A stretch of DNA of 64,000 bases, taken from contig CAYVAT010000004.1 in NCBI GenBank assembly GCA_964449165.1, positions 91,317 to 155,316 on the forward strand, in the 5' to 3' direction. Within the stretch, counting starts at the first letter, position 1, and each line of letters opens with the position of its first letter. The position numbers and the translations under genes were made by a program. Positions 2,123 through 27,433 of this stretch are shown piece by piece. The notes below the pieces were generated by a model that saw only the letters and a program-made list of their open reading frames with translations, had not been told where the DNA came from and did not search any database. This DNA is from an uncultured Eubacteriales bacterium. GTDB taxonomy: Bacteria > Acidobacteriota > Aminicenantia > Aminicenantales > Aminicenantaceae.

Positions 2123-3283
2123 TTAGTGTTGTTTCAATTCCCCCTTGTCAATCTTTACCCAGTTCACTTGTGTAATCATCTGATGCAAAGCCGCTTTGGC
2201 CACGGCGACCTGGGTAGCATACTTCGGTGTTGTGCTTGCAGGAAAAGTTGCGAGTGTTGCGTCGCCGACAAGAAAGACATTGAAGTCTTTGCTCAGATTT
2301 TCGTAGCCGCACGTGGTGCTGATGACACACATATCTGTGGCGTATCCGGTCAGTAAAATGTGACGTACACCTTTGCTCTTCAAGTAATCGCGGACTTTTT
2401 GGTACCCTTCATCGTCATAAAACACTATATCGTTTTTTCTCAGCTCGAGAGATTTAACAATCGGAATCGGCAACTGCCCGTATCCTGGTCCGTTATAGTA
2501 GACACTGTCATCCGTGGAGGGAGTGAGACTAAAGTAGCTCTTAACGGGCGTATTTGCGTCAAGTAGAAGGGTTTTTTTCAATGGATTCCCTTCGAACTTG
2601 TGTCTGCTCAACAATTCAGCGAGCAAGTTCTTACCCTGTTCGATGTCCTGTTCTTCAGGCTTTGTTAATATTGAGGAATAGAGAAGCTTTCGAACTTGGT
2701 CTTCCGAGCCCGGCAAAGAATGTCCTACAAGAGAAACATAACCGCGCAACCGGGATAAAAAAGGGTTAATCACGTCCTGAACGTGCATGATCATTAACTT
2801 ATTTTTTTCTGGAGTGCCGAAGAATTTGCACCCCGCAGGTTCGGGCGTTTTCAGTCCATGTCCATCATCGATACCCCAAGGATGGACATTAATAATTGCT
2901 GTTGCTTTTGCCTCAAGTCGATTCTCCATCTCGACAATACCGCGGGCATTGTACCAGTAACGCCAGGACCTAACGAGCATATCGCTGGCCTTCTCGTCCA
3001 CGACCGGCGGTGCTAGAAAACGGTGATCCGATTGCAAAGGTTGGACATATTCTGGATAGTCAGCCAGCAATGGCATAGGATCTTTGATTTTTTCTAAAGT
3101 ATTATAATAATTATTTGTAGATTTTTCTCTTTTATTCAATTCGTACAACGCTTTCAGTTTTTGATTGGCAAACAGTACCAAGGAAATTGTGAGTAGTCCC
3201 CACAAAATTACGGTAATTATGCTTCTTTGTTTATGGGAATTTCTTTTTAGTACTTGCCGCGAATTCTTTACAATTTTAATCAA
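2123..3283 (-). CDS. Membrane-anchored isochorismatase-family (cysteine hydrolase) protein
   Basis: N-terminal TM (IITVILWGLLTISLVLF); C-terminal region HILLTGYATDMCVISTTCGYENLSKDFNVFLVGDATLA resembles the isochorismatase/CSHase catalytic Cys region. Confidence 0.55.
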   Translation of the reverse strand: MIKIVKNSRQVLKRNSHKQRSIITVILWGLLTISLVLFANQKLKALYELNKREKSTNNYYNTLEKIKDPMPLLADYPEYVQPLQSDHRFLAPPVVDEKASDMLVRSWRYWYNARGIVEMENRLEAKATAIINVHPWGIDDGHGLKTPEPAGCKFFGTPEKNKLMIMHVQDVINPFLSRLRGYVSLVGHSLPGSEDQVRKLLYSSILTKPEEQDIEQGKNLLAELLSRHKFEGNPLKKTLLLDANTPVKSYFSLTPSTDDSVYYNGPGYGQLPIPIVKSLELRKNDIVFYDDEGYQKVRDYLKSKGVRHILLTGYATDMCVISTTCGYENLSKDFNVFLVGDATLATFPASTTPKYATQVAVAKAALHQMITQVNWVKIDKGELKQH

Positions 3284-3391
3284 TCCTCACTCCCTTCAGC
3301 GAGCAGTTTATCGCCCAACTAAAATTCTTTATATTTTATGTATCTTATTGCTAATTTTTGATAAGTTCAGTCTGAATTTTCACAATCAATT

Positions 3392-4096
3392 TCACTTAAG
3401 AAAATTCAGTATATATTCACAGTGCATAAAATCAAACTCGGTATCGACATCCATCGATTCTTTTTCAGAGATGATTACACCTTTCATGTTCTGGTTATCC
3501 AAGATATTTTCCTTATAAATGATATGAGTTTTCATAGCATCAACCACACCATTGATTCGATAAACAGGCGGCAGAAGTTGACGCTGATAATATTTGCTGA
3601 GTTTTATGTCTCCTGAAATAAGCTCGGCACTTCCGTCTTCGGATAATCTATACATCCAGTAAGGATGGTGAACTCCTTCCACCAGGGTCATCGTCCTTAC
3701 AACATCTGCACCAGTATCTCTTATCTTCTTGACTACCCTGTCAATGATTTGCGGAGTTTTAAACGGGGTGGTAGGTCTTAAGTTTACGACAATCTCAGGC
3801 TCGTAATCATCGTTGTTTTTTAACCATTCAAGGACATGTAAAAAGACTGGCTGGTCAGGAGTGTCACTTTTGGCTAATTCAGCAGGTCTCAGGAAAGGAA
3901 CCTCCGCGCCCCATTTTCGAGCGACCTCTGCTATTTCTTCATCATCTGTTGAAACAACCAGCCGTTCGATTGAAGTCGAGTGCAATGCGGCCTCGATGGT
4001 GTAAGCAATCAAAGGCTTGCCAGCAAGAAGCCTTATGTTTTTCCTCGGAACTCGCCTGGAGCCTCCGCGAGCAGGAATTATGCCCAGCACCTTCAT
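3392..4096 (-). CDS. CMP-nonulosonate (acylneuraminate-family) cytidylyltransferase, copy 1
   Basis: MKVLGIIPARGGSRRVPRKNIRLLAGKPLIAYTIE...VSTDDEEIAEVARKWGAEV matches the NeuA/CMP-NeuAc synthetase-family N-terminus; ATG at 4096 overlaps the upstream TGA (ATGA), so start taken at the internal Met rather than the ORF-track start. Confidence 0.85.
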   Translation of the reverse strand: MKVLGIIPARGGSRRVPRKNIRLLAGKPLIAYTIEAALHSTSIERLVVSTDDEEIAEVARKWGAEVPFLRPAELAKSDTPDQPVFLHVLEWLKNNDDYEPEIVVNLRPTTPFKTPQIIDRVVKKIRDTGADVVRTMTLVEGVHHPYWMYRLSEDGSAELISGDIKLSKYYQRQLLPPVYRINGVVDAMKTHIIYKENILDNQNMKGVIISEKESMDVDTEFDFMHCEYILNFLK

Positions 4097-5229
4097 TTTA
4101 TTTTTTTTACGATATTCTTCAAATTTTCTATTATGTAGTTTTGATCCTCCACCGTAAGACCAACCCACATAGGTAAATCAATGAGTTGCTTCCATGCCTT
4201 GTAGCTCGTAGGATAGGAGTCATTTTTATACCCAAATCTCTTCTGGTAGTAAGGCTGGATGTGAATAGGGGGAAAACTCAATCGAGTGTCGATTCCTCTC
4301 GATTTTAATTCAGATACAACTCTGTCACGATCCAGCCCTTCTTTCAATGAAACGGCATACATATACCAGGCATGGCGATTGACATATTCAGGCACAAAGG
4401 GTGGAGAAATATCAGTGGATTCCCTGAATGCGTCGCTATACCTTTCAGCAATCTTGTTCTTCTCATTCAGAATAAATTCAACTCTCTTGAGCTGCTCGAT
4501 CCCGATAGCTGCTGGAATATCCGTCATACGATAGTTGTATCCCAGGTGAATATGGTGATACCGATAATCCTGTCCCTGGTTGCGAACCTGCCGTGTTAAG
4601 ACAGCTTTTTCATCATCATCGGTTGTGACCATCCCTCCTTCACCTGTTGTGATGTTCTTGTTTGGAAAGAAGCTGAATATATGTAGAGGAGCGATCGATC
4701 CCACCTTTCTCCCTTTATAAACAGCCCCCAGTGATTCTGCACTGTCAGCAATAACAATCAAGCCCTTCTCTTCTGCAAAAGCGAGCAGGTGGTCATAGTC
4801 AACCGGCATCCCATTCATGTCCACTGCAATTATGGCCTTTGTCTTGCCTGTTATTCTCTTCTCGGCATCTTCAAGGGAGATATTATAAGTCTTTGGATCA
4901 CACTCCACCAGAACCGGAATGGCTCGTTCATACAGTACAACATTAGCAGTCGAGATAAATGTTATGGTAGGAATAAGCACTTCATCGCCTTCCTCAATGC
5001 CAGATGAAATCAAGGCAAGGTGCAAAGCCGTCGTTCCACTGTTGGCTGCAATCGCATGTCTAGCTCCCACATACCTCGCAAATTCATTTTCAAATTCCTC
5101 AACCCTCTTCCCCATACTCAACCATCCGGACTTAACCACCTCGTACACAGCCTTAGCCTCTTCCTCACCGAGGTAGGGATTTGCCAAGGGAATATTTTTC
5201 ATTTGTAAGTGCTCCTTCATTTTATTCAT
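4093..5229 (-). CDS. DegT/DnrJ/EryC1/StrS-family PLP-dependent sugar aminotransferase (PseC/LegC/WbpE-like)
   Basis: NPYLGEEEAKAVYEVVKSGWLSMGKRVEEFENEFARYVGARHAIAANSGTTALHLAL...SFFPNKNITTGEGGMV typical of DegT family; true start may be the internal Met at about 5202. Confidence 0.85.
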   Translation of the reverse strand: MNKMKEHLQMKNIPLANPYLGEEEAKAVYEVVKSGWLSMGKRVEEFENEFARYVGARHAIAANSGTTALHLALISSGIEEGDEVLIPTITFISTANVVLYERAIPVLVECDPKTYNISLEDAEKRITGKTKAIIAVDMNGMPVDYDHLLAFAEEKGLIVIADSAESLGAVYKGRKVGSIAPLHIFSFFPNKNITTGEGGMVTTDDDEKAVLTRQVRNQGQDYRYHHIHLGYNYRMTDIPAAIGIEQLKRVEFILNEKNKIAERYSDAFRESTDISPPFVPEYVNRHAWYMYAVSLKEGLDRDRVVSELKSRGIDTRLSFPPIHIQPYYQKRFGYKNDSYPTSYKAWKQLIDLPMWVGLTVEDQNYIIENLKNIVKKIK

Positions 5230-5250
5230 TACTGTAGATGCCTGAATGTT

Positions 5251-6273
5251 TCATCTTATGATTTCTTCGTCATTACCTTCATATCGTGGAATAGTATCAT
5301 CAGTATACCAGTCGGTCGTCTTCATTAATCCTTTCCTTAAGGATGTTTGAGGTTCATATCCCAGAGACCGTATCTTGGCAATGCTCGGGCACCTTCTTCT
5401 TGTTCCTCCCGGGAGACGCTTGCCAGGTATTATATTAATCTTGAATTCCAGCAATCCTGCAATCTCTTTAGCGAGATCAGCAATGGTGATTTCATCTTCA
5501 GTACCAATGTGGTAGATCTCACGGCTCTTGCCGAGAGTAGCACACAGAAGTATTCCTTCTACAGCGTCATCAATGTAACAGAATGACCTGGTCTCTTCTC
5601 CTGTTCCCTGAATCGGAAAGTCAATCTCTTTCCTTCGAAAATTATCACTCAGTGTTTTCATGCGCAGTATGAATTGGGGGATGACATGACCCACTCCCAT
5701 ATCAGGACCGTAAAAATTGTGTGGACGGCATATCACGGTTCTCAAGCCAGTCTTTGCAGTATAATGAATAGCTAACAGCTCGGTTATTATTTTTCCTCCA
5801 CTGTATGAAAATCTTGGATTTTTGACATCAGGAATAATGAGCCTTTCCTCTTCGGAAGTAGGGATATGTGAAGGCTCCTGATACACTTCTGATGACGAAG
5901 TGACTAAATAATTACTTACTCCGCATCTCATGGCTGCATCTAGTGTATTCAAGGCACCCTTGACACCCACCTCAAGCACCCTTTCAGGAATTCTGTAGAA
6001 ATTCTCTGTGCCGTTGATAAAGGCAAGGTGAAACAGGGTATCAATCCCCTTGCATGCTTGATAAACCTGATTGAAATCTGTGACATCTCCTTCTCTGTAG
6101 TCAACCTTCTCCAGATACCCTTCCAGTCTGCGGACCATTCCCCTTGAGTTGTTGTCGAGGATACGTACAGAGGCACCTCCATCCACCAATCTCTTGGTCA
6201 GATTGGAACCGACGAATCCTGTTCCCCCGGTTATCAATATTTTTCCCAAGTTCGCTGTCTTTATCCTCTGCAT
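5251..6273 (-). CDS. NAD-dependent epimerase/dehydratase (extended SDR), nucleotide-sugar modifying
   Basis: ILITGGTGFVGSNL Rossmann motif, YSGGK catalytic YxxxK, about 340 aa. Confidence 0.8.
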   Translation of the reverse strand: MQRIKTANLGKILITGGTGFVGSNLTKRLVDGGASVRILDNNSRGMVRRLEGYLEKVDYREGDVTDFNQVYQACKGIDTLFHLAFINGTENFYRIPERVLEVGVKGALNTLDAAMRCGVSNYLVTSSSEVYQEPSHIPTSEEERLIIPDVKNPRFSYSGGKIITELLAIHYTAKTGLRTVICRPHNFYGPDMGVGHVIPQFILRMKTLSDNFRRKEIDFPIQGTGEETRSFCYIDDAVEGILLCATLGKSREIYHIGTEDEITIADLAKEIAGLLEFKINIIPGKRLPGGTRRRCPSIAKIRSLGYEPQTSLRKGLMKTTDWYTDDTIPRYEGNDEEIIR

Positions 6274-7943
6274 CCTATCCCTATGTATCTAATGTTATTA
6301 ACTGTTATGATATCTTTAGGTTCAAAGGTATACCAGCCATCCACGAAAATACAGTCATTCCTGGCAGAATTCAGCAAATCAAACACATCCATCTTCTTGT
6401 AGCTTTTATGATTATTCATGATCAGCACCACATCTGCATCCTTGAAGCCTTCAGCGATAGAAACCGGCTTCACACCCAATGCTGTTATCTCTTCCTGTGA
6501 CACGATCGGATCATAGCCAAAAAAGGAGCTGTCTCTCATCCCCTTTTTACGGAAGTGGTTTAATAGATCTATGGTAGTTGAGCCTCTTAGGTCAGATGTT
6601 TCTGGCTCTCCCTTAAAAGCAAATCCAATAATAAAGATTTTTAATTTATCGATCTTTTTCTTCAACTCCATGATCTGTTGATATACGTCTTCCACAATAT
6701 GGTAGGGAATAAATTCGTTTATCTGTCTCGAGTGTGAGACCATCCTGGGTTGGTGCTTTAGTTCCTTACATGAGTGGATCAGGAAGTATGGGTCCTTGGT
6801 AAGGCATGCTCCTCCAACACCAGGGCTGGGTACCGGTATCTCATCCCTTACGTATCCCAGATTTGCGGCCTGTACCAATTTAACCATATCCAGTCCCAAT
6901 TCTTTACACACCAGTGCCATCTCGTTTGCGTACCCGAACTTGACATCGCGGAAGGTGTTATTGAGAATTTTAACCATCTCTGCACCTTCCAAAGATCCTA
7001 CATCCACAATTATCGGTGTAATCTCTCTGAATAACCTGTTAACAAGCATCGTGCTTTTCTTGTCATATCCACCTATTATCTGAGGCAGTTCTTTGATTTC
7101 AGATATCGCTCTGCCTTCAATTGTTCTTTCAGGTGCATAGGCCAAATAGTAATCAATGCCTGCCTTGAGGCCTGACAGCTCGTTCAGGATTGGTAACATG
7201 ACCTCTCTTGTTGTTCTCACCGGTACCGTAGAACGTAAGACAACTAGATCGTCCGGCTTTAAGAATTTGGCTATATACCTGGCGGCTTCCTCGATATTAT
7301 CGATAATTGGTTTCTTCGTCTCAGGGTTAACCGGAGTCCCTACTGATACGATATACGTATCCACTTTCAATCCAGAGAGATCAGAAATAGGGATGAGATT
7401 TTTCCCGACGTATCTATGAAGGTAAGCCTCCAGATTGTCTTCATAAAAGGGAACGAATCCATTCTTGATTTTTTCAATCAGCTTGCCGTCTGTATCATAC
7501 CCAAATACCTTAAATCCAAATTCGGCGAGGACAACCGATAATGTCAAGCCGACATAGCCCAGTCCGATCATACAGATCTGTCGGGACTTGGCATCCAGTA
7601 AAACACTCTTATCCTTGAAGGTTATGACTCCTTTAACACGTCCGTTATCGTCTAATACGGGTATCTGGGCATACTTTTCATTGACCAGCTCCAGCATTGT
7701 CTCCCGACTCATGCCTTCTTTGACCACGATAGGAGAGCGATTCATGATGTTTTTTACGGGTTCATCTGCATCATGCCCGCTTAAGAATCCTCTCCGGATA
7801 TCTCCGTCCGTAACGATACCCACCAGGCGGTCCTCGTCATCCACAATCATGGCAAATTTTGAGGCCGATTCATTGATAGCCTTCATGACCTCAAAAATAC
7901 TCTTACCCTCGGGAACCATTATTGATTGGATATCATATAACAT
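6261..7943 (-). CDS. CBS-pair domain fused to UDP-glucose/GDP-mannose dehydrogenase-family enzyme (UDP-N-acetylhexosamine 6-dehydrogenase-like, WbpA/WecC-type)
   Basis: N-terminal about 110 aa CBS pair (IVTDGDIRRGF...GVITFKD), then CMIGLGYVGLTLSVVLAEFGFKVFGYDTD NAD-binding start and conserved GGAC(L)TKD catalytic region. Confidence 0.8.
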   Translation of the reverse strand: MLYDIQSIMVPEGKSIFEVMKAINESASKFAMIVDDEDRLVGIVTDGDIRRGFLSGHDADEPVKNIMNRSPIVVKEGMSRETMLELVNEKYAQIPVLDDNGRVKGVITFKDKSVLLDAKSRQICMIGLGYVGLTLSVVLAEFGFKVFGYDTDGKLIEKIKNGFVPFYEDNLEAYLHRYVGKNLIPISDLSGLKVDTYIVSVGTPVNPETKKPIIDNIEEAARYIAKFLKPDDLVVLRSTVPVRTTREVMLPILNELSGLKAGIDYYLAYAPERTIEGRAISEIKELPQIIGGYDKKSTMLVNRLFREITPIIVDVGSLEGAEMVKILNNTFRDVKFGYANEMALVCKELGLDMVKLVQAANLGYVRDEIPVPSPGVGGACLTKDPYFLIHSCKELKHQPRMVSHSRQINEFIPYHIVEDVYQQIMELKKKIDKLKIFIIGFAFKGEPETSDLRGSTTIDLLNHFRKKGMRDSSFFGYDPIVSQEEITALGVKPVSIAEGFKDADVVLIMNNHKSYKKMDVFDLLNSARNDCIFVDGWYTFEPKDIITVNNIRYIGIGCRG

Positions 7944-8000
7944 CTCAGACTTTCCTTTCTAAAAAACTTATTACAAATAATATTGATTTAAAAATTTCTG

Positions 8001-8837
8001 TCAGAGGAGGTTCATCACCTGCTGTGAATTCATATAATCAGCGAGGGAGATGAGCGAATCATCATCTGGAAGGAACAGGAAATTCTCATTTGAGCGGTTG
8101 AATTGCCTTGGATTTTTGAGTATCGCTCCGGATTTTATTTGAGTGATCATGTAACCCAGTTCTTTCAGCAATTGTGCAGCATGGCTCTTTGAAGGATTGT
8201 CATCCTCCCATTTCTCACGGAGTATTTCGAGCACTATTACAGGTCGGTTCTTGACAATGGTGCTTTTTGCTCCTTCAAGGACAGCGTTCTCATGACCTTC
8301 TGCATCACATTTAATCAGCGAAACTCGTCTGTCAGATAGGGTTGAATAAGCGAGGTTGTCCAGCTGATTGGCAGGGATTTGGATTTTCTGCATATGCTCA
8401 TCATTTTTTATTTGATCTGCAGTATCAACTATGGCTGCAGTAGAGGAGATGGATGTATATGGAGGGACGAACATTTTCTTGGAACAGGCCTTGTTTGAAA
8501 GAGCGATATTCAGGCAAAGAATATTGCTATGGCGTTTTGTTCTTTTTTTTAGGAACTGATAATTCCCTGGGACAGGCTCGAAAGCGACTACAATACCATT
8601 TGGTCCCACTAGATGAGAAAGTCTTATCGTCCAGGCACCAATGTATGCACCAACATCAACAGCAGCAGAATCCTTTTCAACCAGACCTGACACAGAATTA
8701 AGCAAAGTGATCTCATTTGCTGTTAATTCTTCAGTGAGAAGTATATTTATTCTCTTGTAGTTATGCTGTATGAATGATGCGGCCGATTGACCGAGAAGCC
8801 TGTATATTGTTTTACGGAGTGCTCTTGGAATTCTCAA
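8001..8837 (-). CDS. FkbM-family SAM-dependent methyltransferase
   Basis: VDVGAYIGAWTIRLSHLVGPNGIVVAFEPVPGNYQFL...LIKCDAEGHENAVLEGA is the FkbM-domain pattern. Confidence 0.7.
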   Translation of the reverse strand: MRIPRALRKTIYRLLGQSAASFIQHNYKRINILLTEELTANEITLLNSVSGLVEKDSAAVDVGAYIGAWTIRLSHLVGPNGIVVAFEPVPGNYQFLKKRTKRHSNILCLNIALSNKACSKKMFVPPYTSISSTAAIVDTADQIKNDEHMQKIQIPANQLDNLAYSTLSDRRVSLIKCDAEGHENAVLEGAKSTIVKNRPVIVLEILREKWEDDNPSKSHAAQLLKELGYMITQIKSGAILKNPRQFNRSNENFLFLPDDDSLISLADYMNSQQVMNLL

Positions 8838-9715
8838 TCTTCCCTTCTTAAAATATTTTTAACCATCTGATATTGGCTCATGATCTCTGCTGTTTTAATT
8901 CCCCTGCATTCGATGGTTATCGGTATCTTTCCCGGATCAAATCTCCTTACAGCTCTCAGTTGCCAGCAATCCGGGGCTAAAAGAACATGTTCATCTTTCT
9001 TGCCATCATTTCCAGATAAATGGATTTCAAAAATCTTGTCCTGGAAACCTTTGCTAAGGGTTTCTATGAATTCGTCTTTATTGAAACCAAAATAATTTGC
9101 GGAGATAACGAGATGCCCTAAATCTAACAGAAAGCCTATATTGTCGTCCTGTCTGCAATAATCGAGAAACTGAATAATCTCAGCCGGAGTGCAGAGTAAT
9201 GAACTATCAGGAGCATCACTAATCGGAAAGAGGTTCTCCAGACCAATCCTGACTCCCCGCATGACAGCATATTTCCTGATCTCCAAAAGCGATTCATACA
9301 TAATGGCTGATGCATATGCAGGGCTTATACCTGAATAACCATCAGCTACAAAGTAATCACTTTCTTGTGAGGCTCGTAATTCTCTCGTATAGCCTGGATG
9401 CAGCGTATAGCAATCTATTTCTAAATCATGGGCTAGATCGATGCTTCTTTTGACAAAATTGATGCTTTTTAATCTTGTTTCTTTATTACTGCTTGCAATA
9501 TTTAAAACAAAGTCTTTCTTGGATGGAGGGAAATAATTATGAATGAGAAGATTAAGAGAAAATTCTTTCTTTAAGCCTTTCAGTTTTTTCAAGATGTTGT
9601 CAGAATAGCTCAGTCCTCCGCTGAGCTCAATATTACAAATACAAATACTAGCAAGTGTGTTGATAGATTCCTCTAGAGAAGAGCTGTTAACAGCTGCAGA
9701 AGAAACATAGATCAT
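8834..9715 (-). CDS. Xylose-isomerase-like TIM-barrel sugar (phosphate) isomerase/epimerase family protein
   Basis: Motifs YTLHPGY, GLENLFP and LDLGHL spaced as in AP-endonuclease-2/xylose-isomerase TIM barrels. Confidence 0.6.
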   Translation of the reverse strand: MIYVSSAAVNSSSLEESINTLASICICNIELSGGLSYSDNILKKLKGLKKEFSLNLLIHNYFPPSKKDFVLNIASSNKETRLKSINFVKRSIDLAHDLEIDCYTLHPGYTRELRASQESDYFVADGYSGISPAYASAIMYESLLEIRKYAVMRGVRIGLENLFPISDAPDSSLLCTPAEIIQFLDYCRQDDNIGFLLDLGHLVISANYFGFNKDEFIETLSKGFQDKIFEIHLSGNDGKKDEHVLLAPDCWQLRAVRRFDPGKIPITIECRGIKTAEIMSQYQMVKNILRRED

Positions 9716-19833: not shown

Positions 19834-21038
19834 CAGTATGTCATCCTTTTCTGGAGTAAACGCATATTTATATCGATTGTTGCCAGGACATGCGCTATCT
19901 GTTCTCCTGCATTCCCGGCACCATAAGGATTTTTCGAGTTTCTGCATCGTCTTCTGAATCCTTCATCATCCAAAGCCTTTCTTACCGCATTGATGATTTC
20001 GTCCCTGTTATAACCCACATCAATGACGTTATCTGCTCGCAAACGGCCATTCTGTCTTGACCCGACATTAACCACAGGACACCCCAGGGCCGGTGTCTCT
20101 TTTATGCCACTGGAGGAATTTCCTACGCAGACTCCTCTTCCTGCTCTTCCACAGATATTCAGGACTCCATGATAATTGTAGCGCCCCAGGCTCTTATAAA
20201 TCCGAAGATTCTTGAGTCTCTCTTTCCTTAATTTTTCGATCTCCTTTATAATTCGCCTCCCTCCGGCATCATTATTCGGGTAAGTGACGATAACCTGGCA
20301 GCCTTCCTTTGCCAGGATACGCATGGCTTCTAAAGAGGGCCTGACCTGTTGAGCTGCTTTTTCAAATTCGGTGGTCACAGAGTGCTGGGTAAACAGGATG
20401 ACCGGTTTATCAGGTATGAGACCGTAGGTTTCCTCGATTTCAGCAGGTGTGGCAAAATGACCAGCAACGATGAGGTCAATTGCGGGGAATCCCACATTGT
20501 AGATCCTCCAGCGCTCCTCTCCCAGGAGTCGTACACGCTCTGCTGCCTGTTCATTGGTGGTAAAATGGAGGTGTGACAACTTAGTCATTGCATGACGTAC
20601 AGAATCATCCAGGGCTCCTCCCTCTGTAATATCTCCTCCTTCTACATGGGCGGTGGGAATGTTCATCTGGGTTGCAGTTATGACCGCAGAGAATCCCTCA
20701 AAACGATCAGCATAGACAACAAGGAAATCAGGTCTTATTTTGTCCAGGATGCGGCTCAAACTCAAGATCCCAGAACCAATTGCTTGAGCTGTGGAGAACA
20801 GGGTATCTTCCTCCATTTCAATCTTTACTTCAGCATATACCTTAAAACCGTCTTTCTCGATTTCCTTCAGTGTATAGCCGAAGTCTTCCTGAAGATGTGC
20901 TCCTGAAACCAATAAAAAGTATTCCAGCTCAGGATGGGCGTCTATTGCCTTCAAGATAGGATATTGAAGCCCGTATTCAGCACGGTTTCCTGTAAAAACG
21001 GCAATTTTTCTTTTATTGGAGGGTATTTTTCTAGTCAT
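19833..21038 (-). CDS. UDP/GDP-N-acetylglucosamine 2-epimerase (hydrolysing), NeuC/LegG family
   Basis: KIAVFTGNRAEYGLQYPILKAI...HVEGGDITEGGALDDSVRHAMTKLSHLHF typical of NeuC-type 2-epimerases. Confidence 0.85.
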   Translation of the reverse strand: MTRKIPSNKRKIAVFTGNRAEYGLQYPILKAIDAHPELEYFLLVSGAHLQEDFGYTLKEIEKDGFKVYAEVKIEMEEDTLFSTAQAIGSGILSLSRILDKIRPDFLVVYADRFEGFSAVITATQMNIPTAHVEGGDITEGGALDDSVRHAMTKLSHLHFTTNEQAAERVRLLGEERWRIYNVGFPAIDLIVAGHFATPAEIEETYGLIPDKPVILFTQHSVTTEFEKAAQQVRPSLEAMRILAKEGCQVIVTYPNNDAGGRRIIKEIEKLRKERLKNLRIYKSLGRYNYHGVLNICGRAGRGVCVGNSSSGIKETPALGCPVVNVGSRQNGRLRADNVIDVGYNRDEIINAVRKALDDEGFRRRCRNSKNPYGAGNAGEQIAHVLATIDINMRLLQKRMTY

Positions 21039-22002
21039 ATCCCTTGAGTGTTAATGACAGTCCTTCAGATAATGTATATCTAGGCTTCCATCCAGTAAAT
21101 TTTTTTAGAAGGCTGTTGTCAAGGATCAGCGTTGAATTTGAAGGCTCATAATTACCTTGTGGTTGAACTTCGTTGATGGGAACAGAGCCTATGCGGCTTG
21201 CCATCTTAACCAGATTAAAAACAGTTGTTCCGATCCCAGTTGATAAATTGACAGTATAACATCCATGCTTATCTGTGGAAACAAATAGATGTATCAGGCC
21301 TTCAATAACATCATCGACGTATATGAAATCTCTTATCGGGGTTAAATCACGAACAACAATTCTTTCGCCATTTTTAATTCTTTTTATAACAGTGCTAACA
21401 ACCGTATCTTCATTGCTTCCTAGCCCATAGACATTGCCTAATCTAGCGATAAAACAGGTTATTTTAAAACTCTTTGAATGACCTGTTATTATTGCTTCTG
21501 CGGATAATTTCAAGCCGGCGTAGATATTTTGAGGAGTTGGGGAAGTTTCCTCGGTCACCGGCTGCCTATGATAATCTCCGTAAACAAGCCCGGTGGATGG
21601 GAAAATGAATTTCCCTATTTTGTTTTGTCTGCAAAATTCTAATGCCTGAAAAGTCAGTAATACATGTGATTTGAAGGCCTTTAGCGGATTTTCTTCACAC
21701 TCTCCTGCGTGAGCAATGCCTGCCATATGAAATACAGCGGTTATACCTCTTTTTTCTGACAGCAGTTCAGATAGTGCTTCATCTGATTTCTCAGGAAAAC
21801 CCCCATGGATAAAACGAAAGGAATTATGCAGGATAATTTCGGCAGAATGTTTCGGAAATTGTTTGTTGGAATCAATCCCAACAACAAATGCTCCATTATC
21901 CAGGAGAGCCTTCACTAAACGGCTGCCCAAGAATCCGCTGGCCCCTGTGACCAGGATTCCGTATCTTTCTAAACTACCAGTTTTCGATATCATCGGGGCC
22001 AA
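21031..22002 (-). CDS. NAD-dependent epimerase/dehydratase-family SDR
   Basis: ILVTGASGFLGSRLVKAL Rossmann motif, YAGLK YxxxK. Confidence 0.75.
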   Translation of the reverse strand: MAPMISKTGSLERYGILVTGASGFLGSRLVKALLDNGAFVVGIDSNKQFPKHSAEIILHNSFRFIHGGFPEKSDEALSELLSEKRGITAVFHMAGIAHAGECEENPLKAFKSHVLLTFQALEFCRQNKIGKFIFPSTGLVYGDYHRQPVTEETSPTPQNIYAGLKLSAEAIITGHSKSFKITCFIARLGNVYGLGSNEDTVVSTVIKRIKNGERIVVRDLTPIRDFIYVDDVIEGLIHLFVSTDKHGCYTVNLSTGIGTTVFNLVKMASRIGSVPINEVQPQGNYEPSNSTLILDNSLLKKFTGWKPRYTLSEGLSLTLKGYD

Positions 22003-23011
22003 TCTGAGAGTCCTTTTGAATATCTCTTGCGGCTTTCTTGCCCAGTACCCTGTTAAGTTCGGGTGCTAAAATGGCTCCAGTCCCGGGTCTTTTTACCCAT
22101 GTGTTTTCAAGAGAGAACACTTTTCCAGCCCTTACAGGAGCAATGGCCACAACAGAGGCATAGGCAAAATCGATGACTGGTTGTTCCTCCGGCAGGATAG
22201 TTTTATGGCCACCCAGGGCTGAAAATATTGCTTTTGAACCTTTTACTAGCTCTGTCAGCTCATCTGGCTCTATAGAAATTGGAACGTCGGGACCGGGCCA
22301 CTCACGAGTTATCGTGAAGTGTTTTTCAAGGGCAGCAGCCCCTAATGCCACAGCACCCAGGCATGTGTATATGCCGATGGAATGATCACTTAGCCCGACA
22401 GGTAAACCAAACATATCCTGCAGCTCCTTTATAGCGCCGAGACGAACCTTTTCATATGGGGTCGGATACATAGAAGTGCAATGCATCAGCATGAGAGGTG
22501 TTTCATATTTTTGAATAGCCTTAACTGATTTTTTAATGGATTCCACATCATTCATTCCAGTTGATAATATTATTGGCTTTCCGAACTTGGTGATATGTTC
22601 CAATAGGGGAATATTGTTGCATTCACCTGAGCCGATCTTGAAAGCTGAGACATTTATAGACTGGAGACGGTCTGCTGCCTCTCTGGAAAAGGGAGTACAG
22701 AGGTATATGATTCCTTTGTCTTCACAGTATTTCTTTATCCGTATTTCCTCCTCCCCAGTCAGCTCGCATCTCTTTATTATGTCCCAAAGACGCTCTTCGG
22801 ATATCTCACCTGGTTTCATGTCTGTGGGAATCATTTCAGCCTCTGTGATATGACTTTGAAATTTTACACAGTCAGCCCCTGCCTTGACTGCCGCATCCAC
22901 ACACTGGATTGCTTTATCAAAGCTCCCTTCATGATTGATGCCTACCTCGGCTATTATAAAAGGTGGATATTGAGGGCCGATTTTACGGTGATTTATCTGG
23001 AATTCCATCAT
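21974..23011 (-). CDS. NeuB-family nonulosonic acid synthase, copy 2
   Basis: FIIAEVGINHEGSFDKAIQCVDAAVKAGADCVKFQSH plus C-terminal SAF domain; clearly paralogous to, but distinct from, copy 1. Confidence 0.85.
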   Translation of the reverse strand: MMEFQINHRKIGPQYPPFIIAEVGINHEGSFDKAIQCVDAAVKAGADCVKFQSHITEAEMIPTDMKPGEISEERLWDIIKRCELTGEEEIRIKKYCEDKGIIYLCTPFSREAADRLQSINVSAFKIGSGECNNIPLLEHITKFGKPIILSTGMNDVESIKKSVKAIQKYETPLMLMHCTSMYPTPYEKVRLGAIKELQDMFGLPVGLSDHSIGIYTCLGAVALGAAALEKHFTITREWPGPDVPISIEPDELTELVKGSKAIFSALGGHKTILPEEQPVIDFAYASVVAIAPVRAGKVFSLENTWVKRPGTGAILAPELNRVLGKKAARDIQKDSQIGPDDIENW

Positions 23012-23101: not shown

Positions 23102-23956
23102 TCACCAGGCTGTCCAGCCGCCATCGATGACCAGAGTCGCCCCTGTCATGTAGCGGGATGCATCGCTGGCAAGGAAGAGGATGGCACCGTTATAATCTGA
23201 CCAGGTGGCCATTCTTCCTAAGGGAGTGCGTTTCACATATTCTTTATGGAATGAGCTCTCCTGGCCGTCATAGACACCACCCGGGACGAGAACATTGACC
23301 CTGACATTGAATTCTCCCCATGATGCTGCCAGATGCCTTGCTAATCCTATCAATCCTGCCTTGGATGCAGAATAGGAGGCAGGACAATTCAACGGGTCAG
23401 CACCTCCATAAATATTTTTTTCTGGTGAGCAACCTTTGTAGATCCTCTGGTCTGGCCCCACGATGCCGTATATAGAAGAAGTTAAGACGATTGAACCTGC
23501 GCGGGATTTTTTCATGTAGTTTACAGCCTCCCGGCAGCACAAAAAAGCTCCGGTCATATTTCCATTCAAAATACTCTTCCATGTGCTTACAGGATACTGG
23601 TCTAAAGGCCTATAATATCCATCTGGTTTTGTCATGACGTTGTAGATAAGGATATCCACTCTTCCCCAAGAATGATGAATCTTTTTGAATAACTCTTGAA
23701 CCTCCATTTCTTTGCTCGCATCGCATTTCAACCCCATCACAGAAGTGCCTGTCAGAGTCGTAACCTCTTTTGCCACAGCTTTACATTTTCTGGCATCGAT
23801 ATCACCTAGTGCGACATTTGCCTGTGCATATCCTAATGTAATGGCAAACTGTCTCCCCATCTTTCCTGCTCCGCCAATGATGACTGCTGTCTTTCCTTTC
23901 AGGTTGAAGAGGGACTCAACCTTATTGAGTTCGGGTATTTTAGAGTAGTCAGACAT
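23102..23956 (-). CDS. Classical short-chain dehydrogenase/reductase (PtmA-like)
   Basis: KTAVIIGGAGKMGRQFA TGxxxGxG-like motif, YSASK catalytic YxxxK. Confidence 0.8.
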   Translation of the reverse strand: MSDYSKIPELNKVESLFNLKGKTAVIIGGAGKMGRQFAITLGYAQANVALGDIDARKCKAVAKEVTTLTGTSVMGLKCDASKEMEVQELFKKIHHSWGRVDILIYNVMTKPDGYYRPLDQYPVSTWKSILNGNMTGAFLCCREAVNYMKKSRAGSIVLTSSIYGIVGPDQRIYKGCSPEKNIYGGADPLNCPASYSASKAGLIGLARHLAASWGEFNVRVNVLVPGGVYDGQESSFHKEYVKRTPLGRMATWSDYNGAILFLASDASRYMTGATLVIDGGWTAW

Positions 23957-24668
23957 TTGTTACCTCTCTGGATTGTTTCATTAAGAATTCGACAATCTTA
24001 AAATCCAATTCCGTATCAATATGAATGGACCGCTCTTCTGGAACCAGAAAGAGACGAGTACGAGGGGGGATTCGCTTGCCGATATCCATGATTGCCTCTC
24101 TTGAGTATATCCATACGGTGGTGTCAAGATCATACACAGGAGGGCACTCCTGACGGCATCCTATATCCCTGTCTGTGGGCATCAATATCTGGACAAAACC
24201 GTCTTCTAAACAAACCATATTAAAATAAGGGCTGCGGTGCGCTTCACATCCAGAGACTACGGCTTGGCAGGCACCATCATGGTGAAACAGTGACAAGGCT
24301 TCTTCTACGTCCTTGACCTTACGCAGGGGGCTGGTTGGATCTAACAATACTAGTATCTTCACTCTTTCTCTGTATATTTCCTCAACGGACTGAACGGCAT
24401 GCTGCATCACCGGCAGCATCGGTGTGTCATCCTTTGCCAATTCAGGAGGCCTGATAAAAGGGACCTCAGCTCCCCATTTTCTCGAAATTTCTGCGATCTC
24501 CGAATCGTCTGTTGAAACGATTGGCTTATCTATAAAAGAGCAGGCCCGTGCACACTCGACAGTATAAGATATCAAAGGTTTTCCCAAAAGGTGTCTGATG
24601 TTTTTCTTTTTTATACCCTTTGATCCACCCCTTGCAGGAATAAGTCCGAGCACCAGACCTGAATTCAT
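23949..24668 (-). CDS. CMP-nonulosonate cytidylyltransferase, copy 2 (LegF/PtmB/NeuA-like)
   Basis: LGLIPARGGSKGIKKKNIRHLLGKPLISYTVE...VSTDDSEIAEISRKWGAEV. Confidence 0.85.
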   Translation of the reverse strand: MNSGLVLGLIPARGGSKGIKKKNIRHLLGKPLISYTVECARACSFIDKPIVSTDDSEIAEISRKWGAEVPFIRPPELAKDDTPMLPVMQHAVQSVEEIYRERVKILVLLDPTSPLRKVKDVEEALSLFHHDGACQAVVSGCEAHRSPYFNMVCLEDGFVQILMPTDRDIGCRQECPPVYDLDTTVWIYSREAIMDIGKRIPPRTRLFLVPEERSIHIDTELDFKIVEFLMKQSREVTNV

Positions 24669-24676
24669 TCCTAAAC

Positions 24677-25708
24677 CTATTGACTTTTTATCTCAGAAGG
24701 CCTGACAGCCCTCCTGGTTTCTGAAGCTTTATGGGCAGCTAATGCTACCTTAAGAACAGCGATTCCGTCTTCAAGATCAACCGCTGGATTGTCTCCATTC
24801 TTTATCCTGTTCAGGAAGTGCTTCATGTGATCGACAAACATGGTATTCCTCTCGAATGAAGCCGGTTGATCGAAAATTCGGGCCTCTGATGTTCCTTTAA
24901 TGCTGAGCGTAACTTTACCGGAGCTGTAATCCCACGAGAGAGTACCTTTACTCCCCACAACTTCACAATCGCGTCTATAGTAGGGACTTAGGTAGTCCAT
25001 CTCGACTTGAGCCACCAGTCCATTGCCAAATCTCAGCAGAATCTGGGCAACATCTTCTGTTTCAATCTCCAGGTCAGATACATGATCGAGGAATGCGGCG
25101 ACATCGGAAACAGGGCCAAACCACCAGTAGAGATAATCCAATTCATGAATCAGGTCAAAAAGCACCCCACCTCCCTGATCTGATTTTGCACTGTAAGAAT
25201 GGCGGTAATCCTGTTCGGGGCGCCAATCAGGCAGATAGTGTCCAACGCTGGCTCTTGCTAAATAAGGCTTGCCGATTTCGCTCCTTTCCAGAAGCTCTTT
25301 TATTGATTGCAGGCCGGGATGAAATCTCATCATGCATCCAACTTCGATAACGAGTGATTTCTCCTCTCTCAGCCTCTTAAAATCCTCAATCCCTTCTAAG
25401 CTGTTCGATAATGGCTTCTCGAAGTATATATGAATTCCTCTCTTTGCAGCCGCAATGGCTGTCTCCATATGCTGATCAGTACGATTACTGATTATGACTG
25501 CATCTGGCCCGGAATCAAAGGCACTCTCTAAGGACGGAAAGACTCTAATCCCATGTTTTTTAGATAGCCCCTTACTTCTTTCTCCCCTATAACTGTAAGC
25601 AGACACAGACGTTCCTAAAGCAAGCAAATTCTTTATATGTCTGGTCCCGATTGAGCCGGTTCCCACAACAAGAACCTTTAAGTCTTTAAACAACACGGTT
25701 GGCTTCAA
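24677..25708 (-). CDS. Gfo/Idh/MocA-family NAD(P)-dependent oxidoreductase
   Basis: KVLVVGTGSIGTRHIKNL N-terminal Rossmann fold and ...IYFEKPLSNSLEG... consensus of GFO_IDH_MocA. Confidence 0.8.
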   Translation of the reverse strand: MKPTVLFKDLKVLVVGTGSIGTRHIKNLLALGTSVSAYSYRGERSKGLSKKHGIRVFPSLESAFDSGPDAVIISNRTDQHMETAIAAAKRGIHIYFEKPLSNSLEGIEDFKRLREEKSLVIEVGCMMRFHPGLQSIKELLERSEIGKPYLARASVGHYLPDWRPEQDYRHSYSAKSDQGGGVLFDLIHELDYLYWWFGPVSDVAAFLDHVSDLEIETEDVAQILLRFGNGLVAQVEMDYLSPYYRRDCEVVGSKGTLSWDYSSGKVTLSIKGTSEARIFDQPASFERNTMFVDHMKHFLNRIKNGDNPAVDLEDGIAVLKVALAAHKASETRRAVRPSEIKSQ

Positions 25709-25868
25709 TGGTTATAAAGATATACAATTTCTGTCATCCAGCAGTTCAGAAAGTTACTTAACTGGACCTTGAAAATCGGCCTTTTTTTGTTCTCGAGAAG
25801 GCCAGGATTTTCGAACTCTTTATAGAGGGCAAAAATTGCTGATAAGATTTATTGAGAAAGCATCACCT

Positions 25869-26975
25869 TTATTTTGAGGAATCTTTGCTCTTTCTTATGA
25901 AATCGACGATTAAGGCCAGAAAAAAGCCTAGGAAAAGAGAAACAAACCCGCTTATCATGACCATCCTTGTCCTTCTTGGCCGAATGGGTCTAGAACTGGC
26001 AAAAGGCTCTTGGACAACGTGAATCAACTTAACATCTGTGGATTCTTCTTTACTCTTCACTTCTTTAAGTTTTTCTAAGAGACGCTTTAAACTCGGCCTT
26101 TCTGTCAATAAGGAATCGTACCTTGAGATGAACTCTGAGAAATCTTGGCCGATATCGGGCTTTTTTATTAATTTTTCCATTATTAAAAGCTGGTTGCTAA
26201 GGTTCCTTTCAGAGTTTTCGAGCAGCTTCTGCTGAACTCCTTGTCCCTCCCTGTTAGTCTGGAGGGTTGTGTTTAATGTATCTTTATAGGCTATGTTCTG
26301 CTGAATAGTGTTTGAATAGAGTAACAGAGCAACAGGATCCCCTTTACCTCCTTCGCTCAGCATACGGTCTCTTTGTTTGATAATAGATTCTGTATTTTCA
26401 TCAATCATCTTAATCTGCTTCCTTATTTTTGTTTCTGCGTCTTTCAACAGTTTTATCTGGTTTATGTAAAATACAATTTCATTTAATATCTCTTTAAACT
26501 TGTCTATTTTCGATGTGATTTTCCACGAAAAAGATTTTTCTATCTGGTTAAGCAGTTCTCTCATTATTATCTCACCCTGTTCAGGGTCTGTTGTGTCATA
26601 AGACACATTGATAATATAGGCCTCTCCGGGTTTTTTAGCAGTAAATTGCAAGCCAAAGGGAGGGATATTTAATGCATTAAAAATCTTCGGGTTATAGATT
26701 CCACCATTGATAAAGGAAACCATCTCATCGATTTTAGCTACTGGGACAAGTTCAACTTTCATGGTTTCAGGATCTAACTCCTCGATAGCCCCAGGACTTA
26801 ATGAAGCTGTTACCCTGTATACAGGTGTTATCATGTAGCTTCTTACTAAGGCAGCAATAACTGACAAGATGACGATTCCGATAATAATAAATTTCCATCT
26901 CCAGATGACCTTAATATAGTCATAGAGATTGATATTATCCTCGTAATTATCGGTCTTATATTCCGGGTTTTTCAT
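25869..26975 (-). CDS. Wzz/PCP-family polysaccharide chain-length determinant
   Basis: N-terminal TM (WKFIIIGIVILSVIAALV), long coiled-coil periplasmic region, C-terminal TM (VMISGFVSLFLGFFLALIV): classic PCP topology. Confidence 0.7.
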   Translation of the reverse strand: MKNPEYKTDNYEDNINLYDYIKVIWRWKFIIIGIVILSVIAALVRSYMITPVYRVTASLSPGAIEELDPETMKVELVPVAKIDEMVSFINGGIYNPKIFNALNIPPFGLQFTAKKPGEAYIINVSYDTTDPEQGEIIMRELLNQIEKSFSWKITSKIDKFKEILNEIVFYINQIKLLKDAETKIRKQIKMIDENTESIIKQRDRMLSEGGKGDPVALLLYSNTIQQNIAYKDTLNTTLQTNREGQGVQQKLLENSERNLSNQLLIMEKLIKKPDIGQDFSEFISRYDSLLTERPSLKRLLEKLKEVKSKEESTDVKLIHVVQEPFASSRPIRPRRTRMVMISGFVSLFLGFFLALIVDFIRKSKDSSK

Positions 26976-27058
26976 CCTGTGTCGAACCTCCCGTTTTTAG
27001 ATTTGTGAAATTCTTGCTTCTTCTATAATGACATTCCTTTATGCTGAATTATTATAGC

Positions 27059-27433
27059 TTAATCAGTATCTCGAAGTAATCCTTTTTTCTCTGTTTGTGA
27101 TAATGGATAATTCTCATCGCTAATTTCTTTCTCTAAATCTTTCTTTAATTCTTCAATCTCAATTCTTAAGACATCGTATTCATGCAACTTTTTATCCAGA
27201 AAATGATATGTAAGCTCCATCTTTTTCTTTATGCCTTTGGGTGTCAGAATATACATATAGGCAAGCTTTTTCTTTGAGTTTTTGAATTTCTCTGCCTTGA
27301 TCAGGCCTTTATCAATAAGGGCATTGAGGACGTAGTTCACCTTGCCAAGGCTGAGACCAAGCTTTTTAGAAAGGTCACGCTGGGAGAGGGTTTTGTCCTT
27401 TGCCAGTTCCTTCAGGATTTTAAGATTGTCCAT
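27059..27433 (-). CDS. Small winged-helix transcriptional regulator (MarR-like, EPS-locus-associated type) at the head of the glycan locus
   Basis: 124 aa; LSQRDLSKKLGLSLGKVNYVLNALIDKGLI helix-turn-helix with following wing; first gene of the co-directional block. Confidence 0.55.
   Translation of the reverse strand: MDNLKILKELAKDKTLSQRDLSKKLGLSLGKVNYVLNALIDKGLIKAEKFKNSKKKLAYMYILTPKGIKKKMELTYHFLDKKLHEYDVLRIEIEELKKDLEKEISDENYPLSQTEKKGLLRDTD

Follow-up and report, generated by a model that had tools for sequence, protein, structure and literature searches.

The window described here, a stretch of 64,000 nucleotides (nt) from contig CAYVAT010000004.1 of an uncultured bacterium of the Aminicenantaceae, contains 23 long open reading frames (ORFs) between positions 2123 and 27433, every one intact and located on the minus strand. 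With moderate confidence, this run is read as a surface-glycan locus in which nonulosonic acids (NulOs), activated with cytidine monophosphate (CMP), would be attached to a lipid-linked or lipopolysaccharide (LPS)-linked acceptor, and in which two pathway modules are combined. Module A (25708-17786) is a cassette of the legionaminic acid (Leg) type. Module B, or cassette B (11393-3392), includes a second NeuB, a DegT aminotransferase and a second CMP-transferase, and is a separately inherited cassette, not mere tailoring. The gene order, the domain and family assignments, the folds, the synteny and the recurrence of cassette B were observed directly. All genes of the run are given below with minus-strand coordinates, and profile scores are followed by the cutoff of the model where one applies.

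Profile searches against Pfam and NCBIfam supported all gene classes listed for the run in a first-pass annotation of the sequence, including the NeuB, NeuC, CTP_transf_3 and PtmE-type assignments. Module A starts with an oxidoreductase of the Gfo/Idh/MocA family, similar to PtmF (24677-25708; PF01408, PF02894 and PF22725). It is followed by a first CMP-ulosonic acid synthetase, LegF/NeuA-like and here called CMP-transferase 1 (23949-24668; PF02348, 76 bits; PseF model, 138 bits, cutoff 206), and by a classical short-chain dehydrogenase/reductase (SDR) similar to PtmA (23102-23956; adh_short and adh_short_C2), whose gene overlaps the upstream gene by 8 nt. NeuB1, a synthase of the NeuB/LegI group (21974-23011; PF03102 and SAF), scored 375 bits against TIGR03569 (cutoff 399.65) and 243 bits against the PseI model. 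It is 51% identical (358 bits) to NeuB of Neisseria meningitidis (NmNeuB), an N-acetylneuraminic acid (Neu5Ac) synthase, with 192 bits for SpsE and 162 bits for PseI. The next gene codes for an extended SDR that resembles GalE and may act as a C4 epimerase or reductase (21031-22002; PF01370), with uridine diphosphate (UDP)-glucose 4-epimerases as top matches in the PDB; it carries the motif STGLVYG, without the acid/base residues of the dehydratases.

The second half of module A consists of three tightly packed genes. For the first, a NeuC/LegG-type hydrolysing 2-epimerase of nucleoside diphosphate (NDP)-N-acetylhexosamine (HexNAc) was identified (19833-21038; TIGR03568, 395 bits, cutoff 236; WecB model, 91 bits). 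The second codes for a PtmE-like protein of 349 amino acids (aa), with a pair of CBS domains and a sugar-1-phosphate nucleotidyltransferase domain (18784-19833; CBS twice, PF00483). Its assignment is a match of domain architecture only, and no equivalog model exists for it; the gene, called with this length on a metagenome contig of the Logan collection, overlaps both neighbours by 1 nt. The third codes for a LegB-type NAD-dependent 4,6-dehydratase (17786-18784; TIGR04180, 489 bits, cutoff 475; motif STSEVYG). Of the features of a Leg cassette, the locus contains LegB, a protein of PtmE-type architecture, NeuC/LegG, NeuD/LegH and a synthase of the NeuB/LegI and not the PseI group. Of the Neu5Ac pathway, the NeuC, NeuB and NeuA classes are all present, but LegB and PtmE belong to the conserved block in which they lie.

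The hallmark combination of genes had been taken to indicate legionaminic, pseudaminic or neuraminic acid, of which the Leg/Neu type is retained and the pseudaminic type dropped. The pseudaminic pathway was rejected, since its equivalogs stayed below cutoff (best scores PseB 63 against 408, PseC 307 against 423, PseI 318 against 340 and PseF 149 against 206) and no homologues of PseG or PseH were found in Pfam and NCBIfam searches of the locus proteins. The resemblance to Campylobacter, pointed out earlier for the trio of SDR, oxidoreductase and CBS-nucleotidyltransferase, agrees with published Leg clusters, in which PtmA, LegF, PtmF and PtmE are listed together (PMC4481668). With the Leg system of Campylobacter jejuni, also present in Plesiomonas, Vibrio fischeri and E. 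coli (Elg), the locus shares LegB, PtmE and genes of the NeuC, NeuB and NeuD types, as well as a CTP_transf_3 synthetase flanked by oxidoreductases of the Gfo and adh_short families. In contrast to that system, the aminotransferase and acetyltransferase of the window lie 13-20 kb away in the other cassette, the aminotransferase scores below the LegC cutoff, and an additional GalE-like SDR is present between NeuB and NeuC. The window also lacks flagellar and Maf genes; together with a Wzz and a MarR_EPS regulator in the run, this points to a setting of the LPS or exopolysaccharide (EPS) type.

Module A is not restricted to this lineage. A block of CMP-transferase 1, PtmA-like SDR, NeuB1, in some cases the GalE-like SDR, NeuC, PtmE and LegB, together with a toroid protein described below, recurs with 40-75% identity in KSB1 (L004), in Dehalococcoidia (L005) and in a metagenome-assembled genome (MAG) of the Pseudomonadota (L030). 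The GalE-like SDR is found between NeuB1 and NeuC also in L004 and L030, and the trio of Gfo, CMP-transferase and adh_short genes is kept in L005 and in Candidatus Aminicenans (L002).

Module B is headed by NeuB2, a second nonulosonic or ulosonic acid synthase (10338-11393), which scored 432 bits against TIGR03569 (cutoff 399.65) and 318 bits against the PseI model (cutoff 340). In the PDB, its distances to SpsE (229 bits), PseI (223 bits) and NmNeuB (185 bits) are about equal, and NeuB1 and NeuB2 differ in their best structural relatives. The two synthases are 36% identical, the two CMP-transferases 38%, and both paralogue pairs are old. NeuB2 is followed by an N-acetyltransferase of the NeuD/PglD type (9712-10344; TIGR03570, 218 bits, cutoff 161; PglD_N and Hexapep), by a TIM barrel protein similar to xylose isomerase (8834-9715; PF01261, 86 bits), for which the uncharacterised MJ1311 is the top PDB match, and by a methyltransferase of the FkbM family (8001-8837; PF05050, TIGR01444).

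The following gene codes for a protein combining a CBS pair with an NDP-sugar 6-dehydrogenase (6261-7943; N-terminal, central and C-terminal UDPG_MGDP_dh domains and CBS; TIGR03026, 346 bits, cutoff 190), which is closest to the dehydrogenases of UDP-N-acetylmannosamine (ManNAc) and UDP-N-acetylglucosamine (GlcNAc). Its CBS pair and that of PtmE (18784-19833) are 36% identical to each other, which suggests that the pairs have a common origin, or that one regulatory ligand acts on the entry enzymes of both modules. An extended SDR (5251-6273; PF01370), whose gene overlaps the dehydrogenase gene by 13 nt, may be a decarboxylase like UDP-xylose synthase (UXS) or ArnA, or a 4,6-dehydratase. The best informatively named PDB match is human UDP-glucuronate decarboxylase (UXS1) with 117 bits, compared to 95 bits for deoxythymidine diphosphate (dTDP)-glucose dehydratases. 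Among the NCBIfam models, LegB gave the best score with 141 bits (cutoff 475), with 72 bits for PRK11908 (cutoff 294) and 59 bits for ArnA (cutoff 777). The TSE/SSE motif does not discriminate here, as SSSEVYQ in this SDR compares to STSEVYG in LegB. The only DegT-family aminotransferase of the locus, dependent on pyridoxal phosphate (4093-5202; PF01041, 406 bits), scored 307 bits for PseC (cutoff 423), 283 bits for the LegC family TIGR04181 (cutoff 420) and 276 bits for ArnB (cutoff 631), and is orthologous to the aminotransferases of other cassettes B. Module B ends with CMP-ulosonic acid synthetase 2 (CMP-transferase 2; 3392-4096; PF02348, 102 bits).

Relatives of cassette B were identified from the genomic contexts of homologues of the SDR at 5251-6273. 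In a marine metagenome (L034), the CBS-dehydrogenase (52%), the SDR (66%), DegT (56%) and the CMP-transferase (59%) are present, and the same four genes were found with 52-64% identity on a 213-kb contig (L036), with a Capsule_synth gene close by. In L035, the gene order is Gfo, CMP-transferase (47%), NeuB (42%), PglD (38%), TIM barrel (38%), CBS-dehydrogenase (45%) and SDR (56%). In L037, it is CMP-transferase (50%), NeuB (45%), formyltransferase, TIM barrel (34%), CBS-dehydrogenase (45%), SDR (56%) and DegT (57%); here, a Wzx gene follows on the opposite strand, and NeuC, LegB and PtmE are absent within 10 kb. Overall, the orthologues in these four loci show 34-66% identity with the gene order kept in unrelated metagenomic lineages. 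The dehydrogenase (45-52%) lies directly upstream of the SDR in all four, the two genes abutting in each case with an overlap of 1-13 nt or a distance of 4 nt. DegT orthologues (56-64%) were found in L034, L036 and L037, and those of CMP-transferase 2 (47-59%) are located either after DegT or before NeuB. The place of the TIM barrel gene, with NeuB or the acyltransferase and the CBS-dehydrogenase as neighbours, is retained in L035, L037 and L038, the last being a metagenome contig of the Joint Genome Institute (JGI). A triplet of dehydrogenase, SDR and DegT in L031 was rejected as an orthologue of cassette B, as its 23-33% identity marks it as an analogue only; the true orthologues are those of L034 to L038.

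In the close relative L003 (positions 10154-13587 of that locus), the place of module B is taken by a sulfotransferase, a divergent CMP-transferase and a fusion of NeuB with a domain similar to cupin/lyxose isomerase, 508 aa long. Since module B is replaced there and occurs alone elsewhere, inheritance is modular. The dehydrogenase, amidotransferase, methyltransferase and TIM barrel had all been regarded as tailoring genes; this holds for AsnB and FkbM, which are variable accessories, and not for the dehydrogenase and the TIM barrel, which are part of the conserved, recurrent cassette. Nothing specific emerged from literature searches on cassette B, on NulOs of the Aminicenantes or on a diamino ulosonic acid with eight carbons.

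Because the two synthase/synthetase pairs are divergent and cassette B recurs independently, the locus likely provides two CMP-ulosonic acids. For module A, a cassette of the guanosine diphosphate (GDP)-GlcNAc type, PtmE would make a GDP-HexNAc, which LegB would then dehydrate at C4/C6. NeuC/LegG would free the 2-epimerised sugar, NeuB1 would join it with phosphoenolpyruvate (PEP), and CMP-transferase 1 would activate the resulting acid; ancillary roles in redox or epimerisation steps are predicted for the GalE-like SDR and for the oxidoreductases similar to PtmF and PtmA. Module B would yield the second CMP-ulosonic acid, and the lone DegT/NeuD pair probably also carries out the steps of LegC and LegH in module A. 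MarR_EPS is predicted to regulate the unit, and Wzz would point to a polymeric product. The substrates, the sharing of DegT and NeuD, the pairing of transferases with donors, the operon status and the destination of the glycan are what we infer from these observations.

Clusters with more than one NulO synthase and/or synthetase have been described for the LPS locus of Leptospira interrogans and for a Leg-related cluster of Candidatus Kuenenia stuttgartiensis, and, in the excerpts of the published accounts considered here, were read as coding for several NulO species. According to the same excerpts, Leptospira contains a fusion of NeuB with a phosphatase, and Kuenenia a deacetylase and a formyltransferase, unlike the window; a cassette of CBS-dehydrogenase, SDR, DegT and TIM barrel, or a toroid, is not part of the descriptions in these excerpts.

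Several points weigh against two modules making two CMP-nonulosonic sugars for an LPS-type acceptor. The locus contains one aminotransferase and one N-acetyltransferase, so that two complete di-N-acyl pathways would require sharing. Moreover, the 13-14 kb of DNA examined for L005 and L030, both of the Leg type, contain neither an aminotransferase nor an acetyltransferase, for which reason the product of module A may not be a 5,7-diamino sugar. LegI and NeuB are not separable by the models used, which include none specific for LegF or LegI, and the automated names in IMG are N,N'-diacetyllegionaminate synthase for NeuB2 and CMP-N,N'-diacetyllegionaminic acid synthase for CMP-transferase 2. Searches of the 64-kb window with Pfam, NCBIfam and hydropathy revealed no Wzx, Wzy, ABC transporter, outer membrane polysaccharide export (OPX) protein or initiating transferase. 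Promoter and terminator counts were no higher than expected from shuffled sequence.

Co-transcription of the run as one operon is predicted from its layout; the promoter and terminator counts speak neither for it nor against it. Gene starts were set by the gene calls on the Logan contig, which agrees with the window in 5949 of 5950 compared bases, and by full-length coverage by homologues. With the best-supported starts, overlaps of 1-29 nt occur at 11 of the 22 junctions, gaps of 8-160 nt separate the genes at the others, and the gene lengths total 24,594 nt within the span of 25,311 nt. The run had been described as about 25 consecutive minus-strand genes; the common strand was confirmed, and the count is corrected to 23. 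The overlapping junctions reported with it were all recovered: ATGA at 4093-4096, formed by the DegT stop and the start of CMP-transferase 2; TGATG at 19833, a 1-nt overlap which needs the 349-aa PtmE start and not the 387-aa longest ORF; a 7-nt overlap at 10338-10344; ATGA at 9712-9715; and TTGA at 8834-8837, with TTG as start codon.

It is possible, though we favour it less than a single operon, that the run consists of several neighbouring transcription units sharing a strand, for example MarR, Wzz, module A, the transferase block and module B. Gaps of 76-160 nt between Wzz and Gfo, the PtmA-like SDR and NeuB1, the toroid and the 531-aa transferase, the 488-aa protein and NeuB2, and CMP-transferase 2 and the isochorismatase-like gene would fit such units, as would a module B which is replaced in L003 and able to occur alone. 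However, a scan of the minus strand inside the run revealed no convincing intrinsic terminator, half of the junctions overlap, and the comparable 27-kb cluster of Tannerella forsythia has been shown to be polycistronic.

This cluster is also the model for a rather unlikely alternative, namely that the locus codes for one NulO pathway together with the supply of an acceptor sugar. The T. forsythia cluster for protein O-glycosylation contains legBCHIGF and ptmE, the transferase GtfS, a 605-aa AsnB, WecC and methyltransferases (PMC6120980). It resembles the window locus in size and single-strand layout, in its Leg genes with ptmE, and in a soluble NulO transferase of the glycosyltransferase B (GT-B) fold with a His-Pro (HP) motif; an AsnB-like protein of about 600 aa, a HexNAc dehydrogenase and methyltransferases are likewise common to both. 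According to this alternative, a single CMP-Leg derivative would be made by PtmE, LegB, DegT in the role of LegC, NeuD in that of LegH, NeuC, and one NeuB with one CMP-transferase. A HexNAc-uronic acid as acceptor would come from the CBS-dehydrogenase, either by itself or together with the SDR as 4-epimerase; AsnB would amidate this uronic acid or form an acetamidino group, and FkbM would methylate. The second NeuB and CMP-transferase would be redundant, or would convert and re-activate an epimer like aciABCD and EpaAB of Acinetobacter. The matching parts list argues for this, as do the N-acetylmannosaminuronic acid (ManNAcA) that serves as NulO acceptor in T. forsythia (PMC5420450), the best scores of the CBS-dehydrogenase, which were obtained with UDP-ManNAc dehydrogenase models, and the single DegT and NeuD; the Acinetobacter epimer-conversion modules also comprise a second cytidylyltransferase and short-chain dehydrogenases. 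Against it stand the conserved order of cassette B, with overlapping genes in unrelated lineages and, in L037, without Leg genes nearby, and the absence from the locus of a WecB-type non-hydrolysing epimerase and of glycosyltransferases of families GT1, GT2 and GT4 to transfer the uronic acid. The Acinetobacter modules, moreover, contain no second NeuB. Compared to T. forsythia, the window locus is devoid of wzx, WecB and GT1/GT2 transferases, and adds the second NeuB and CMP-transferase, the TIM barrel, the UXS-like SDR and the toroid.

Improbable, in our view, is an exchange of roles, in which module B would be the true di-N-acetyl-Leg pathway, with the SDR as dehydratase, DegT as LegC, NeuD as LegH, NeuB2 as LegI and CMP-transferase 2 as LegF. 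Module A would then lead to a mono-amino NulO, Neu5Ac-like or 9-deoxy, through dehydration and 4-keto reduction by LegB and the GalE-like SDR and the subsequent action of NeuC and the NmNeuB-like NeuB1. The 51% identity of NeuB1 to the meningococcal Neu5Ac synthase is consistent with this, as are the IMG names, the lack of aminotransferase and acetyltransferase genes in the examined DNA of L005 and L030, and LegB as top NCBIfam match of the SDR at 5251-6273. However, names assigned automatically do not amount to tests, and it is module A that contains PtmE and the LegB scoring above the cutoff of TIGR04180, the definition of which we take to be a cassette including an aminotransferase. Furthermore, cassette B has no hydrolase of the NeuC or PseG type, and an exchange of roles would leave the tightly coupled CBS-dehydrogenase and the TIM barrel without a function.

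Within the reading of two modules, a specific route can be suggested for cassette B, to which we attach very little probability. The logic of ArnA and ArnB was proposed because it is the only one seen that uses a dehydrogenase, an SDR and an aminotransferase in this order. An NDP-HexNAc would be oxidised to the uronate and converted by oxidative decarboxylation to a 4-keto-pentose, which would be transaminated, N-acylated, condensed with PEP by NeuB and activated with CMP. Its product would be an eight-carbon 5,7-diacylamido-3,5,7-trideoxy-octulosonic acid, or 'nor-legionaminic acid', with the formula C12H20N2O8 and a mass of 320.12 Da calculated here for the di-N-acetyl form, compared to 334.14 Da for Leg5Ac7Ac (C13H22N2O8) and 293.11 Da for a mono-amino 9-deoxy NulO (C11H19NO8). 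On the same slender basis, dedicated transferases would move this product, and the toroid would be a new accessory factor, perhaps presenting the lipid acceptor. In the pathway for UDP-4-amino-4-deoxy-L-arabinose (UDP-L-Ara4N; Ugd, ArnA decarboxylase, ArnB, ArnA formyltransferase), as with UDP-xylose synthase, the order of reactions matches that of 6-dehydrogenase, SDR, DegT and N-acyltransferase in cassette B, and L037 contains a formyltransferase in place of NeuD, as in the Arn pathway. In contrast to that pathway, cassette B carries a NeuB-type synthase and a CMP-transferase, and its scores for the Arn models are far below the cutoffs.

Between the two modules, four genes form a central block. 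The first codes for an AsnB-like glutamine amidotransferase (15908-17746; GATase_7 and Asn_synthase), which scored 665 bits against TIGR03108, the model of the XrtA/PEP-CTERM amidotransferases, and stays below its cutoff of 817. The gene is missing in L002 and present in L003, L004 and L038. The second codes for an alpha/alpha toroid of 415 aa (14648-15895), which belongs to a small unnamed family with a fold like the beta subunit of prenyltransferases, and which is not itself a member of the protein prenyltransferase beta subunits or of PF00432. Members of this family adjoin at least one homologue of a NulO-pathway gene in 9 of 29 related loci that were inspected, and the toroid is regarded as a conserved partner.

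The other two genes of the block encode predicted transferases. The 531-aa protein is a Capsule_synth transferase similar to KpsC and KpsS (12976-14571): it scored 43.7 bits for PF05159, above the gathering score of 20, and has an HP motif. PDB matches to KpsC beta-Kdo transferases were weak (Kdo, 3-deoxy-D-manno-octulosonic acid; E about 0.01), and the entries 5fa0/8cse, under the name N-acetyl glucosaminyl transferase, matched more weakly still. H369-P370, H330 and E332 are near-invariant across seven homologues, and hydropathy revealed no transmembrane (TM) segment in the protein, which is soluble. The 488-aa protein (11497-12963), also soluble, is a GT-B protein with an invariant H312-P313 and a distant relative of the CDP-alcohol phosphotransferases TagF/TarL and of the T. 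forsythia transferases for pseudaminic and legionaminic acid. It resembles the BFO_1060 family without being a member, since fold and HP motif are present but its score of 60 bits lies below the cutoff of 200 of NF046086, the NCBIfam model named for the GtfS homologue BFO_1060. In a profile comparison, the family of the 488-aa protein showed no relationship to that of the 531-aa protein or to a 532-aa protein encoded upstream of the L037 cassette. The two proteins are likely CMP-sugar transferases, presumably one for each donor. Their similarity to KpsC/KpsS and TagF/TarL is marginal, the window lacks the KpsMTED export genes, and the donor is presumably a nonulosonic acid and not Kdo or glycerol phosphate.

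Homologues of the 488-aa protein also adjoin another module in a MAG of Candidatus Thioglobus (L031) and in a groundwater metagenome (L032). It consists of SIS_2, a HAD phosphatase, a short NeuB of 289 aa without SAF domain, a TIM barrel, Gfo, CTP_transf_3 and adh_short, which suggests a further ulosonic acid pathway using the same transferase family.

Among the genomes scanned with a toroid alignment, the closest is Candidatus Aminicenans sakinawicola (candidate phylum OP8, Aminicenantes), with 82% identity for the toroid. In Candidatus Aminicenans (L002), the locus is syntenic from MarR to CMP-transferase 2 with 67-87% amino acid identity, and AsnB and FkbM are missing. The JGI contig L038 is syntenic with 68-88% identity from NeuC, where its 10-kb flank begins, and contains FkbM. 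From the synteny in L002 and L038 and the gene differences among L002, L038 and L003, the locus is seen to be a conserved framework carrying exchangeable accessory genes, a pattern to be expected of a surface glycan. AsnB, FkbM and a sulfatase-family protein are predicted to have strain-variable tailoring functions. The locus has a GC content of 42.5%, compared to 46.6% at 44-64 kb of the window; a lowered GC content is frequent in variable glycan loci.

At the upstream end, the first gene of the run encodes an EPS-associated regulator of the MarR family (27059-27433). It was assigned to TIGR04176 by score (132 bits, cutoff 88) and by its position in an EPS-type locus, with Pfam matches to HTH_24 and MarR, and it heads the locus of L002 as well (84% identity). 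The second codes for a Wzz-like polysaccharide co-polymerase (PCP) of 368 aa (25869-26975; PF02706, 31.2 bits, cutoff 25.5), which has the hydrophobic TM segments (21-39 and 336-354) of the Wzz/PCP-1 type and is 72% identical to its L002 counterpart. Upstream of the MarR gene, a candidate sigma-70-like promoter (TTGACT-18-TATACT; 27542-27571, minus strand) and a hairpin with a 14-bp stem (27832-27864, minus strand) were identified; given the site counts mentioned above, both are only suggestive. The hairpin lies downstream of a 137-aa ORF (28226-28639, minus strand), the transcription of which it probably terminates, and an upstream boundary of the run near the MarR gene is plausible. The 137-aa ORF has no family match, and around it, at 26-30 kb, the GC content drops to 35-37%. 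Across the whole window, a scan at Rfam gathering scores detected no RNA family, and ARAGORN no tRNA or tmRNA and, with that, no island boundary marker.

At the downstream end, the last of the 23 genes codes for a 386-aa protein with an N-terminal TM segment (19-37) and a C-terminal isochorismatase-like (cysteine hydrolase) domain (2123-3283; PF00857, 36.5 bits, matched over residues 294-349 only). Whether it belongs to the unit is uncertain; in L038, a flippase-like gene and a GT2 gene follow CMP-transferase 2 in its place. The run had been taken to end at 2123, which does not hold, as a minus-strand ORF beginning at 2040, 82 nt further downstream, carries on past the window edge. This 24th gene (1-2040, partial, at least 680 aa) codes for a TM segment, a domain of the sulfatase superfamily (PF00884, 153 bits) and LamG (Laminin_G_3, 68 bits). 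A C/S-x-P-x-R motif, usual for sulfatases, was not obvious near SPNTMNSAPSIF on inspection by eye. A sulfatase-family gene is also present in L038, between LegB and AsnB, and its product is 27% identical to the protein encoded at 1-2040.

The rest of the window contains LptD, an rml-like block, an RfaL/Wzy_C-like ligase, a GT9 heptosyltransferase and a Kdo/WaaP-like kinase. Because these genes are of the LPS type and the run includes Wzz, an LPS-linked polymer would fit the setting; protein glycosylation or EPS is possible as well. Beyond LptD, a block resembling one for dTDP-sugar synthesis (31172-35770, plus strand) is divergent from the NulO locus and consists of a long-form RmlA (504 bits), an RmlC-like protein, RmlB (452 bits), a GMD-like SDR and another SDR. 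Further on is a gene for a 774-aa protein (37444-39768, minus strand) with about seven hydrophobic segments, a C-terminal LamG and no other family match, which is the second LamG-tailed membrane protein of the window and could be an enzyme similar to glycosyltransferases of the GT-C fold or to polymerases. In a second region of low GC content (40100-44399; 36-40%), there are genes for a PaaK-like adenylating enzyme, for a flippase-like LPG_synthase_TM protein (TIGR00374), for a radical SAM/SPASM protein and for a methyltransferase dependent on S-adenosylmethionine (SAM). A further block (44525-52678) is similar to LPS-core loci and contains genes for a PfkB kinase, a PHP/CehA-like metallohydrolase, the RfaL/Wzy_C-like ligase (46645-47925), the GT9 heptosyltransferase, a GT4 protein, the Kdo/WaaP-like kinase and a 423-aa protein without family match.

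Nonulosonic acids shape the recognition of bacterial surfaces by hosts, phages and other cells. To our knowledge, almost everything that is understood of their pathways stems from a few pathogens, and we know of few enzymes of the class of CMP-sugar transferases considered here. The locus belongs to a known type, to which are added a widely distributed cassette B, for which no characterisation was found, two candidate CMP-sugar transferases and an unnamed toroid family. For an uncultured environmental lineage, the Aminicenantes, it shows a canonical Leg-type cassette physically joined to a second cassette. If cassette B does make a new ulosonic acid, this would widen the chemical range of these sugars and would provide enzymes for glyco-engineering; otherwise, the locus would simply be a well-resolved case, from the environment, of a class already known.

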